From contig JBBRPR010000002.1 in assembly GCA_038227875.1 (NCBI GenBank), positions 128,001-192,000 on the forward strand: 64,000 nucleotides of DNA. Reading direction: 5' to 3'. Of the stretch, positions 9,345 through 13,519 are shown one piece after another. The notes under the pieces are model-generated. The model saw nothing but the letters and a program-made list of their open reading frames with translations. It ran no database searches and was not told the DNA's origin. Numbering within the stretch: the first letter of the stretch is position 1; the number at the start of each line of letters is the position of its first letter. Position numbers and translations under genes: made by a program. Source of the DNA: Planctomycetota bacterium (GTDB lineage Bacteria; Planctomycetota; SZUA-567; H5-PLA8).

Positions 9345-10001
9345 TTACGCTTTCGTTGACGCAGAAACAACCGGAGCCGGAGCGGCGGCAGCGACTGGCG
9401 CGACCGGAGCAGCAGCGGGAGCCGGGCGCGGAGTGGCCGCGGCCGAAGGCCCGCCACCGGTGCGTTCCGGTTTTGCCGGTTTGTCGGGCACGGCCTGTTT
9501 CGGAGCCAGGATGAGACCGACACGCTTTCCTTCGCGGAAGGGAGGGCGTTCAACCTTGGCCGAATCGGCGAGCTGCGTCACGACGTTCTTCAGGATCTGT
9601 TCACCGATCGACTGATGGGCGATTTCGCGGCCCTTGTAGATCATGGTGAACTGCACGCGGTGGCCTGCTTCCAGGAACTCCTTGGCGTGCGTGACCTTGA
9701 TGTCGAGATCGTGCTTGCCGATCTTGAAACTCAACCGTACTTCCTTGAGATCGTGGGCGTGCGCCTTCTTGCGCGCCTTCTGTTCCTTCTTCTGTTCGTG
9801 GTAGATGTGCTTGCCGTAATCCATGATGCGGCACACCGGTGGTTCGGCCGTCGGCGCGACTTCCACCAGATCCAGTTCCAGTTCTGTGGCCTTCATGCGT
9901 GCCTGGTCGGCCAGCATGATTCCCAGCTGTGCACCTTCCGGTCCGATCACGCGGACGGTCTTCGACTTGATTTCCGCGTTAATTTTCAGTCTCTCTGAAA
10001 T
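9345..10001 (-). CDS. infC: Translation initiation factor IF-3, ATT start, Ala/Pro-rich C-terminal tail
   Basis: INAEI..VRVIG...LDLVEVAP.AEPPVCRIMDYGK and KEVRL..KIG.HD motifs; AAGGAGG lies 8 nt before ATT at 10001. Confidence 0.97.
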   Translation of the reverse strand: MSERLKINAEIKSKTVRVIGPEGAQLGIMLADQARMKATELELDLVEVAPTAEPPVCRIMDYGKHIYHEQKKEQKARKKAHAHDLKEVRLSFKIGKHDLDIKVTHAKEFLEAGHRVQFTMIYKGREIAHQSIGEQILKNVVTQLADSAKVERPPFREGKRVGLILAPKQAVPDKPAKPERTGGGPSAAATPRPAPAAAPVAPVAAAAPAPVVSASTKA

Positions 10002-10085
10002 GGCCGTAGCCTCCTTGTTCCTTGAGTATCCCCCTGCGTGGCCCGGGCACATACCCGGGTTTACAACACCTGCCTGCTCCGTCGT

Positions 10086-10229
10086 TTACTGATTCTGTCC
10101 CAAGTACAGATGCGCAACGTCGACCCGGGCCTGGGTGGTGCGCATAATGCCCGCGAATTGACCATCCGGTCCAATCAGACGGACCATCGCTGTCTTGATT
10201 TCATCGTTCATCCGTAGTCGTTCAGTCAT
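10086..10229 (-). CDS. 47-aa small protein paralogous to the IF3 N-terminus
   Basis: MTERLRMNDEIKTAMVRLIGPDGQFAGIMRTTQARVDVAHLYLGQNQ; AAAGGAGGT SD; gap-free alignment to InfC residues 1-36. Confidence 0.7.
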   Translation of the reverse strand: MTERLRMNDEIKTAMVRLIGPDGQFAGIMRTTQARVDVAHLYLGQNQ

Positions 10230-10291
10230 CTGCACACCTCCTTTCGTCTGTTCTTTCGTCAACGCCTTCGCTTACGCAAATCGCTCTCCCA

Positions 10292-12280
10292 TTATGTCAA
10301 TTTGCGCTCGGTAATTTCCTGTTTCGCCCGGGCGATGAATTCCGCCACCGGCATCGTGCCCAGGTCCTTCCGTCCGCGGCCGCGGACTGCGACGCTGTTG
10401 TTGGCCGCTTCGCGTTCGCCGATGACCAGCAGGTACGGGATCTTCGCGGCTTCCGACTCGGCGACCTTGGCGTTGATCTTGTAGTGGCCGAGGTCCTCTT
10501 CCACGCGCATACCGATGGCGCGCAGTTCGGCGGAAACGCGCCGGACTGCCTCTTCCTGCTTGTCGGTGATGTTCGCCACGCGCACCTGCACGGGAGACAG
10601 CCACAGCGGGAACGCGCCGGCGAAGTGTTCGATCAGGATGCCCACGAAGCGTTCGAAGCTGCCGAACGGCGCGCGGTGGATCATCACCGGACGGTGGCGC
10701 GCGTTGTCCGCGCCGACGTATTCCAGCTTGAAGCGTTCGGGCAGATTGTAATCGAGCTGAACGGTACCCAACTGCCATTCGCGGCCGATGCAGTCCTTGA
10801 CCATGAAGTCGAGCTTCGGACCGTAGAAGGCCGCTTCGCCGGGCATTTCCTCGTGCGGCAACTTCATGTCCTTGGCGACACGCTTCAAGGTTTCTTCCGC
10901 GCGGTCCCAAGTCTTCGGGTCGCCGGTGTATTTGTCGCTCTTCGGATCGCGCAAGCTGACCTGCACGCGGTAGTCGTTCAAGCCCAGCGCGGAGAAGATC
11001 GTCTGGACCAGCCCGACGGTGCTCTGGAATTCCTGCTCGACCTGCTCGGGAGTACAGAACAGATGCGCGTCGTCCTGAGTCAATCCGCGGACGCGGGTCA
11101 TGCCGTTGAGCTCACCGGACTGCTCGTAGCGGTAGACGGTCCCGAATTCCGCCAGGCGCACCGGCAGATCGCGGTAGCTGTGCTGCTCGGCCGCGTAGAT
11201 CTGAATGTGGTGCGGGCAGTTCATCGGCTTGAGCAGGTACTCTTCGTTGCCTTCGCCTTTGAGCGTCGGGTACTGGCTGTCTTTGTAGAACGGGAAGTGG
11301 CCGGAGATCTTGTACATCTCGACGTTGCCGATGTGCGGGGTGAAGACCGGCTGGTAACCGCGCTTGAAGAGCTCCGACTGCATCAGGTTCTGCAGTTCGG
11401 TGCGCATGATCGCGCCCTTGGGCATCCAGAGCACCAGGCCCTGTCCGACCAGTTGCGACATGGTGAACAGACCCATCTGCTTGCCGATCACGCGGTGGTC
11501 GCGCTTCTTGGCTTCGTCGATGCGGTCGAGGTGTTCCTTCAGGTCCTTGGCATCGTTGAAGGCGGTGCCGTAGATGCGCTGGAGCTGCTTGAGTTTCTCG
11601 TCGCCGTGGAAGTAGGCGCCGGCGACGGCAGTGAGCTTGTACGCGCCGATGCGGCCGGTGGCCGGGACGTGCGGTCCCATGCACAGGTCTTCGAAATCCT
11701 TGCCGACGTTTGAGCCGGTGACGTAGAAGGAGAGGATCTCGCCTTCCGCGCGCTGGGCGTTGTCGAGCTTGTAGGGATTGCCTTCGGCTTCGAGCTTCTT
11801 GATGCCTTCGGCGCGCGACAGTTCGTAGCGGGTCATCGGCCGGTTTTCGGCGACGATCTTGGCCATCTCTGCTTCGATCTTGGGGAAGTCGTCGACGGAG
11901 ATTTTGTAGTCGAGATCGATGTCGCCGTAGAAGCCTTCCGACGTCGGCGGACCGTAGACCAGCTTGGCTTCGGGCCAGAGGCGGATGATGGCTTCGGTCA
12001 TCACGTGTTCGGCGGTGTGGCGGATGCAGTAGAGCGCATCGGAGTCGAGCTTGCCGTCGCGGGACTTCGGAGTCACGACCGCGAACTTTCCGCTCTTGTC
12101 GAGGGGCCTGTTGAGGTCGTGGATCTGTCCGTCGATCTTGACGGCGATGGCATCGGCGGCGAGCCGTTTGCCGATCGACGCGGCGACCTGGTATCCGGTG
12201 GTTCCCGCGCTGAATTCGTGCTGCGATCCGTCGGGGTAGGTAAGAGTAATGTTGTGTGCTCCCGGGTTAATGGTGTTCAT
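10292..12280 (-). CDS. thrS: Threonine--tRNA ligase
   Basis: TGS domain, HxxxH editing motif, KPMNCPHH, YRYEQSGELNGMTRVR, AFYGPKLDF, MIHRAPFGS. Confidence 0.99.
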   Translation of the reverse strand: MNTINPGAHNITLTYPDGSQHEFSAGTTGYQVAASIGKRLAADAIAVKIDGQIHDLNRPLDKSGKFAVVTPKSRDGKLDSDALYCIRHTAEHVMTEAIIRLWPEAKLVYGPPTSEGFYGDIDLDYKISVDDFPKIEAEMAKIVAENRPMTRYELSRAEGIKKLEAEGNPYKLDNAQRAEGEILSFYVTGSNVGKDFEDLCMGPHVPATGRIGAYKLTAVAGAYFHGDEKLKQLQRIYGTAFNDAKDLKEHLDRIDEAKKRDHRVIGKQMGLFTMSQLVGQGLVLWMPKGAIMRTELQNLMQSELFKRGYQPVFTPHIGNVEMYKISGHFPFYKDSQYPTLKGEGNEEYLLKPMNCPHHIQIYAAEQHSYRDLPVRLAEFGTVYRYEQSGELNGMTRVRGLTQDDAHLFCTPEQVEQEFQSTVGLVQTIFSALGLNDYRVQVSLRDPKSDKYTGDPKTWDRAEETLKRVAKDMKLPHEEMPGEAAFYGPKLDFMVKDCIGREWQLGTVQLDYNLPERFKLEYVGADNARHRPVMIHRAPFGSFERFVGILIEHFAGAFPLWLSPVQVRVANITDKQEEAVRRVSAELRAIGMRVEEDLGHYKINAKVAESEAAKIPYLLVIGEREAANNSVAVRGRGRKDLGTMPVAEFIARAKQEITERKLT

Positions 12281-13234: not shown

Positions 13235-13519
13235 CCACGTGGATGGTTCGTGAAGGTTGAGAGCGCGGGGCGCGTGTGGTTCATGCTGTTGCCGTTGCTG
13301 TTCACGCTGTTGCTTGGGAGCTCGGCGAGGGCTGGGGTGTGGCATTAGATGGCCTGATCACTGGAAAGGCGGCGAGGGTTGCGCGGAAATCGGGCGCCCT
13401 TTCAGGGCGCGGGGCATCGAGTCGAACCGAGGGCTGCCGCCCTCGGCTATTGACGGGCGGCCTTCCAGGCCGTGGGGCTTCGCGCGATCGGTGGCGACTC
13501 GGACGGGCGGGCTTTGTTT

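Follow-up and report, generated by a model that had tools for sequence, protein, structure and literature searches.

The window, i.e. the whole stretch of 64,000 nt that was analysed, lies on contig 2 of a 9.3-Mb draft genome of a Planctomycetota bacterium (G000; 176 contigs, 88% complete, 4% contamination), and the NCBI names of related IF-3 proteins are those of Planctomycetota MAGs. In the closest metagenomic relatives, long contigs encode InfCs of 92-95% identity (P0006, P0008 and P0024). In this stretch thrS, a small ORF and infC follow each other, all on the minus strand (Table 1), with 62 nt between thrS and the small ORF and 84 nt between the stop of the latter and the ATT of infC. A hairpin in the leader of infC starts 26 nt past the ORF stop and leaves the infC ribosome-binding site (SD) outside. 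It falls within 9830-10077, which is covered by a contig of a ~94% identical relative (X4, see below), and is therefore part of a leader that this relative also has.

Table 1. Features of the thrS-infC region, in window coordinates
Feature	Position	Strand	Description	Basis
thrS	10292..12280	-	662 codons, four Pfam domains; same-strand gene upstream of the small ORF	
Strain-variable 195-nt segment	10078..10272	-	Contains the SD and the whole small ORF; present in G000, precisely missing in the ~94% identical relative X4	
SD of the small ORF, AAGGAGG	10237..10243	-	ATG 7 nt further	Sequence
Small ORF	10086..10229	-	47 codons, ATG 10229-10227, TAA 10088-10086	
infC-homologous block of the ORF, codons 1-35	10125..10229	-	Corresponds to IF3_N profile positions 1-28	
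Polymorphic ORF middle	10114..10187	-	74 nt replaced by 38 other letters in run X2	
ORF tail, codons 36-47 and stop	10086..10124	-	Without detectable infC homology; 15/36 bases identical	
infC leader hairpin	10042..10059	-	6-bp G+C stem, 6-nt loop; between the ORF stop and the infC SD	Sequence and fold
SD of infC, AAGGAGG	10010..10016	-	ATT 8 nt further	Sequence
infC proper	9345..10001	-	ATT 10001 start, 218 codons; IF3_N 99 bits, IF3_C 97.9 bits (Pfam)	

No significant RNA fold was found in the region of the ORF and the infC leader (z = -0.71), which also contains no terminator-like sites and no minus-strand promoter consensus, the single promoter-like site being on the plus strand. Between 8500 and 13500, Rfam gave no match except for an unrelated sRNA, and the reading of the segment as an RNA element was dropped on these grounds. 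The sRNA in question is a full-length match (1-46) to Acido-Lenti-1 (RF01687) at 13427-13472 (+), of 44.9 bits versus a gathering score of 37 (E 5e-8), which lies ~1.1 kb upstream of thrS on the opposite strand. Neither an attenuator nor an SD-sequestering hairpin, an overlap or a short coupling distance, any of which could link the ORF to the infC start structurally, is present at the locus.

The infC start and the thrS-infC spacer in the family

In 15 genomes of the family, infC starts with ATT in 11 and with ATC in 3, behind an AAGGAGG-like SD, the one exception being G004, where an in-frame ATG lies four codons upstream. In E. coli, infC is autoregulated through its non-AUG (AUU) start codon, and since a non-AUG start is kept in 14 of the 15 family genomes, control based on the start codon probably operates on infC here as well. 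PMC11890864 names infC as a cold-shock-induced protein. The InfC of the public record (P0095, 235 aa) starts at an ATG at 10052, in the loop of the leader hairpin and without an SD; this annotated start is probably 17 codons too early, because the ATT/ATC 8 nt behind AAGGAGG is conserved in 14 of the 15 family genomes. Other gene callers begin InfC at Met29 (P0005, 190 aa).

Across the family, the thrS-infC spacer can be as short as about 90 nt or as long as about 1,040 nt, and it is an insertion hot spot. In G003 (L026 895-1355) it is occupied by the gene for a HicA toxin (Pfam E 3e-13) and by a UPF0150-like (HicB-type) partner, and in G008 (L024) a homologous insert with an antitoxin-like ORF occupies the same place. 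The HicB-like protein encoded in G003 begins with residues that resemble the start of IF3, but this was put down to chance, since the homologue in G008 does not share it. The spacer of G013 (L039, ~1,040 nt) is unusually long and A+T-rich, with repeated TTGTCATTTG-like motifs at both ends; it may contain a small hydrophobic ORF and looks like another insertion at the same site.

Two further observations concern infC itself. A G+C-rich hairpin ~25-40 nt before the infC SD is found in G000 (10059-10042), G003 and G001 (L026, L027), with stems that differ in sequence, and is followed, as read by eye, by a similar G-rich stretch and ACTCAAGGAA; possibly, this subclade has conserved it as part of the infC leader. 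In G002, infC (L033 804-1365) is matched in two pieces in different frames (residues 5-58 and 55-199), with the IF3_N match split into positions 2-52 and 54-70; as the gene is essential and the genome a draft, this may be a frameshift or an error of sequencing.

Relation of the small ORF to the N-terminus of IF3

The first-pass annotation had described a 47-codon ORF with SD and ATG that aligns without gaps to the start of InfC with 19 identities, and this alignment was fully reproduced. Over codons 1-35, 19/35 residues and 67/105 bases are identical, and BLASTP against the InfC of the window gives a gap-free match with 21/43 identities (E 1e-11). A different codon is used at 9 of the 19 identical residues (about half had been reported), and the two sequences differ at codon positions 1, 2 and 3 in 11, 9 and 18 of the 35 codons, respectively. 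The comparison with the IF3_N profile (PF05198), which had been proposed as a check, gave a mixed result: residues 7-34 of the ORF match significantly (E 3e-5), but the 24.5 bits remain below the Pfam gathering score of 26.9 bits and only profile positions 1-28 of 70 (~40% of the domain) are covered, compared to 99 bits across positions 1-70 for the genuine InfC. The ORF is also significantly homologous to true IF3 N-termini elsewhere, tblastn matching it to the start of InfC in most relatives with E values of 1e-10 to 1e-4.

The homology has sharp limits on both sides. Beyond codon 35 none was detected (the score of the tail was equalled in 94 of 300 shuffles), only the SD heptamer aligns between the 62 nt upstream of the ORF and the infC leader (444 of 500 shuffles reached an equal score), and the 8 nt after the ORF stop resemble the infC region no better than shuffled sequence does. 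As far as the alignment goes, what the ORF represents is the SD of infC and its first 35 codons, copied and since diverged, in keeping with the paralogy to the IF3 N-terminus that had been claimed, and it presumably originated by duplication. Within its own genome the 195-nt segment has no second copy, the best other match being 29 nt, and a mobile or repeated element was dropped as an explanation for that reason.

A single-sequence AlphaFold2 model of the peptide has strands at residues 13-19, 25-32 and 36-41 and no helix, at a mean pLDDT of 70. The layout of IF3_N, i.e. the hairpin, helix and further strands of the solved N-domain (e.g. 1tif), would place the helix where the likeness of the ORF to IF3 ends. 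The structure prediction that had been called for therefore returned an incomplete N-domain, i.e. three strands without the helix of the complete alpha/beta fold, and judging from this model the peptide probably cannot form the IF3 N-domain alone.

Distribution and strain-level variation

The ORF had been presented as unannotated, but a nameless 47-aa protein with exactly its sequence is on record (P0001, NCBI source). The sole other copy that was found (P0004) comes from a second public assembly in ENA, is likewise 47 aa long and is 94% identical. As to the arrangement, of which the first-pass annotation knew no description, neither an ORF upstream of infC nor an IF3_N fragment was found to be described in the open literature either, judging by titles and the openings of abstracts.

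G000 itself has one complete infC plus the ORF fragment. Among 41 genomes (G000, 16 of the same family and the rest of the same order or class), IF3_N was matched in 40, with a second match, adjoining infC, in G000 only; among 62 genomes of the class (G000 and 61 others, none of the same genus), 59 had a match and again only G000 had two at E <= 0.01. These tallies include G017, an unpublished genome with a single match, which enters no other result given here. The search of the infC loci of relatives that had been suggested did not bring up a counterpart: in 0 of 39 loci did tblastn find a homologue of the ORF in the spacer, only the start of each infC itself being matched, and weak additional matches (E 0.012 and weaker) fell in thrS or elsewhere outside the spacer. 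In a collection of 5.8 billion proteins, a word-based search among proteins of similar length returned only the ORF's own cluster of 2, and the same type of search among longer proteins gave no match, which is weak evidence. Using phmmer against 1.84 billion cluster representatives, the ORF itself and two repeat-rich, surface-type proteins (602 and 2,811 aa) were retrieved, the latter two being unrelated and dropped as IF3 relatives. Pattern scans, which are insensitive owing to the exact 8-residue word they require, yielded one locus in JGI metagenome contigs and two in 185,579 species genomes; all three were rejected as chance 8-residue matches inside unrelated long ORFs. Going by these searches, the ORF occurs only in a single, narrow group of strains within a Planctomycetota lineage.

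Strains were compared using Logan contigs of DNA runs. Over 9807-10600, the window is identical to a contig that was assembled separately from the probable source run. In a rhizosphere run (X4, record 31, 768 nt), 10077 is joined straight to 10273, with flanks at 9830-10077 (248 nt, 11 differences) and 10273-10591 (319 nt, 22 differences). This ~94% identical relative thus lacks exactly the 195 nt that comprise the SD, the whole ORF and 8 nt more, and its spacer would be ~95 nt, similar to the 90-165-nt spacers in most of the family.

A bioreactor run (X2) provides read-length contigs that are identical to the window over 9914-10064 and differ from it once over 10188-10282. In the interval between 10188 and 10113, its record 16 has 38 other letters in place of the 74 nt of the window (net -36 nt). 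Counted by hand from the coordinates, this amounts to an in-frame loss of 12 codons, by which the codons of the IF3-like hairpin are gone and the remainder is very diverged, the first 14 and last 8 ORF codons being unchanged. In a peat run (X3), near-identical flanks (9999-10115 and 10214-10364) and a loose end were found, with 10134-10195 uncovered, and it may carry the same allele as X2. The middle of the ORF is the variable part between otherwise near-identical strains, and the stretches that contain the SD, the ATG and codons 1-14 show 1 difference apiece in X2 and in X3. All three alleles (G000, P0004 and X2) have the same start and a frame that is open to the same stop region, and both full-length copies (G000 and P0004) are intact, with ATG and SD kept and without a frameshift or internal stop. 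The very diverged middle of X2 between near-identical flanks suggests old, recombining alleles and a locus that is older than the strain group.

Constraint on the ORF and its probable nature

Compared to the ORF, P0004 has 3/47 residues changed (V16I, R30H and T32A), versus 1/190 in P0005 (ENA), which corresponds to InfC residues 29-218 and has its one change in the low-complexity, Pro/Ala-rich tail. The two proteins probably lie on one contig, because ENA is the source of both and the longest contig is 3,032 nt in either case. Per residue, the ORF has thus changed ~12 times faster than InfC (Fisher p = 0.025). At 12 of the 35 aligned positions the ORF has a residue that is unseen at that position in 12 InfCs of the family, compared to 0 for the InfC of G000 itself. 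These changes affect 4/14 family-invariant and 8/21 variable IF3 positions (p = 0.72), i.e. both alike, and therefore it seems that the conservation pattern of IF3 is ignored; with 10/14 kept, the invariant positions are not preferentially retained, as selection of the IF3 type would have it.

Based on only 34 codons (2-35), which give little power, the Nei-Gojobori comparison with its own infC gives a dN of 0.36, a saturated dS of ~1.1 and a dN/dS of ~0.3; across all comparisons, synonymous sites are saturated (dS of 0.8 to >3, or undefined). Against the infCs of the six closest genera dN is 0.33-0.36, and against the other five compared it is 0.42-0.49. The synonymous distance between the ORF and its own infC is as deep as that between genera, despite the narrow distribution. 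In its turn, infC is under strong purifying selection (dN/dS of 0.05-0.13 versus its closest orthologues), so that its own branch would by itself be expected to supply the synonymous differences that separate it from the ORF. The first-pass annotation had taken the codon differences as a sign of constraint on the protein, which they do not demonstrate: the observed 11, 9 and 18 of 35 fit a neutral copy about as well, for which a rough calculation gives ~14 third-position differences (versus 18, i.e. within sampling error). If the ORF is only a relic, its main value would be this caution, that a fragment can differ in its codons from a constrained parent without being constrained itself. The pairwise dN/dS of ~0.3 is nevertheless lower than the value of roughly 0.5 that would be expected if one branch were neutral and the other constrained. 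GC3 (0.60 for the ORF, 0.82 +/- 0.05 for neighbouring genes) was rejected as a coding test because it does not discriminate, the first 47 codons of infC itself being at 0.64.

Altogether, the ORF is probably a partial copy of the infC 5' end that is restricted to some strains and under relaxed constraint; its translation may be accidental, and it would have no specific role. The leftover copy would consist of the infC ribosome-binding site and first 35 codons followed by 12 unrelated codons, would sit in a 195-nt insertion/deletion polymorphism of the spacer, and appears to be released from the selection that shapes IF3. Thanks to the strong SD and ATG the 47-residue peptide is probably made, but, holding only the first beta-hairpin of the N-domain, it presumably lacks a function, and any influence of the ORF on infC expression would be incidental. 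Partial-duplication pseudogenes are similar in most respects: the ORF is a truncated homologue beside its intact parent in the same genome, in an indel-prone spacer, with a patchy presence among strains, faster residue change than the parent and an unrelated tail up to the first stop. In contrast to such pseudogenes, it lacks disabling lesions (frameshift, internal stop or lost start), has kept or gained a strong SD and AUG, and is genus-deep in its distance to the parent. The signs that the earlier annotation had named for a decaying fragment are largely there, the ORF being missing in X4 and in the 61 other class genomes searched, having its core deleted in the near-identical X2 and showing the 3/47 versus 1/190 changes. 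Against a pure relic speak the intact ORF in both full-length copies and the frame that was kept in X2 without accumulation of a frameshift or stop, which is weak evidence for a maintained frame, as an in-frame loss of 36 nt is estimated to occur by chance in ~1 in 5 cases. The deep dS (~1.1 versus its own infC), an age signal that contrasts with the narrow distribution, also fits poorly with a recent accident, and a neutral relic should not survive for so long. The pattern of alleles, with its hint at old variants that recombine, likewise speaks against a pure relic.

The retained frame is what would be expected of a young, lineage-specific uORF of infC, in which the copied initiation region has acquired an AUG where infC has AUU and would load ribosomes whether or not IF3 is abundant. 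Translation of the ORF would either keep the 195-nt insert covered by ribosomes (i.e. prevent polarity or cleavage) or tune access to the infC start 84 nt downstream, so that the act of translation matters and the sequence of the peptide does not. This is possible, if rather unlikely. The ORF is short and, like bacterial uORFs or leader peptides, has its own strong SD (7 nt from the ATG) in the leader of a regulated gene; G000, P0004 (3 substitutions) and X2 (exactly 12 codons lost) all keep start and frame, with the well-preserved SD, ATG and first 14 codons in X2 and X3, and a tolerated deletion of the core suits a uORF whose sequence is unimportant. Start-codon control of infC, by the mechanism known from E. 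coli, is moreover probable with the non-AUG start in 14/15 family genomes, and the copy carries the same SD as the ATT/ATC infC. Unlike infC, however, the copy begins with ATG and would escape that control. The ORF is also missing from the ~94% identical relative, from the 61 class genomes and from every other genome searched, which means that infC control does not need it, and its stop, 84 nt before the ATT and 26 nt before the hairpin, is probably too far away for termination-reinitiation or hairpin melting. In contrast to known leader peptides, it occurs in one strain group only, derives from the coding sequence of the downstream gene itself, and has neither significant RNA structure (z = -0.71) nor a terminator-like site for attenuation. 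A eukaryotic analogue, the autoregulation of eIF5 through uORFs, is described in PMC3326321. That a newborn regulatory uORF has formed here from infC's own initiation region, its AUG being translated whatever the IF3 level and modulating the supply of ribosomes to the IF3-sensitive AUU start in one strain group, seems clearly unlikely.

The suggestion that the ORF encodes a modulator of translation initiation (a mini-IF3) would require that the 47-residue peptide, with its copy of the first N-domain beta-hairpin, attaches to the 30S subunit or to initiator tRNA and modulates initiation fidelity. It agrees with the 10/14 retained invariant positions and the predicted hairpin (13-19 and 25-32, plus a third strand, mean pLDDT 70) at the place of the hairpin in IF3_N, and the AUG start would presumably escape IF3 autoregulation. 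It is nevertheless very improbable, as only 28/70 profile positions are present, without the helix and last strands (so that folding alone is presumably impossible) and without a linker or C-domain; four invariant positions are altered and conserved sites not preferentially spared, the hairpin itself is deleted in the X2 allele, the ORF changes ~12 times faster than InfC, and it has no homologue elsewhere in the genomes and protein collections searched. A foreign origin, i.e. the infC 5' region of another family member acquired by horizontal transfer and illegitimate insertion, would account for the deep dS (~1.1) without great age. The ORF is indeed about as far from its own infC as from those of the six closest genera and is narrowly distributed, and it has the ERLR-N-EIK pattern that marks its own subclade within the family. 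On the other hand, no IF3 like the ORF is present at E <= 1e-3 among the 1.84 billion representatives (i.e. no donor-like IF3 is known), 12/35 of its residues are foreign to all family InfCs compared, and the thrS end at the junction is not unusually diverged in X4 (22/319 versus 11/248); such a transfer is quite improbable, and as it concerns the origin only it is compatible with a present relic. An assembly artefact or chimeric join could be imagined in a metagenome-assembled draft of 176 contigs with 88% completeness and 4% contamination, but its probability is negligible: the independently built contig of the probable source run is identical throughout 9807-10600, the second assembly has the 47-aa ORF, a 99% identical InfC comes from a contig of the same length (3,032 nt), and both ends of the 195-nt segment are spanned by reads of X2 and X3.

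If the ORF is only a relic of the infC 5' end, it would be an ordinary by-product of an indel-prone spacer. The age signal and the deeply diverged alleles between near-identical flanks are the only parts that deserve another look. If it were a uORF after all, a natural circuit based on start-codon stringency would be gaining an upstream competitor or helper that is blind to IF3, and selection on it would have left its first trace in the alleles that preserve the frame. In that case, the locus would show the birth of a regulatory uORF from the initiation region of the very gene it regulates, and it would offer a natural way into the study of IF3 autoregulation in bacteria other than the models.
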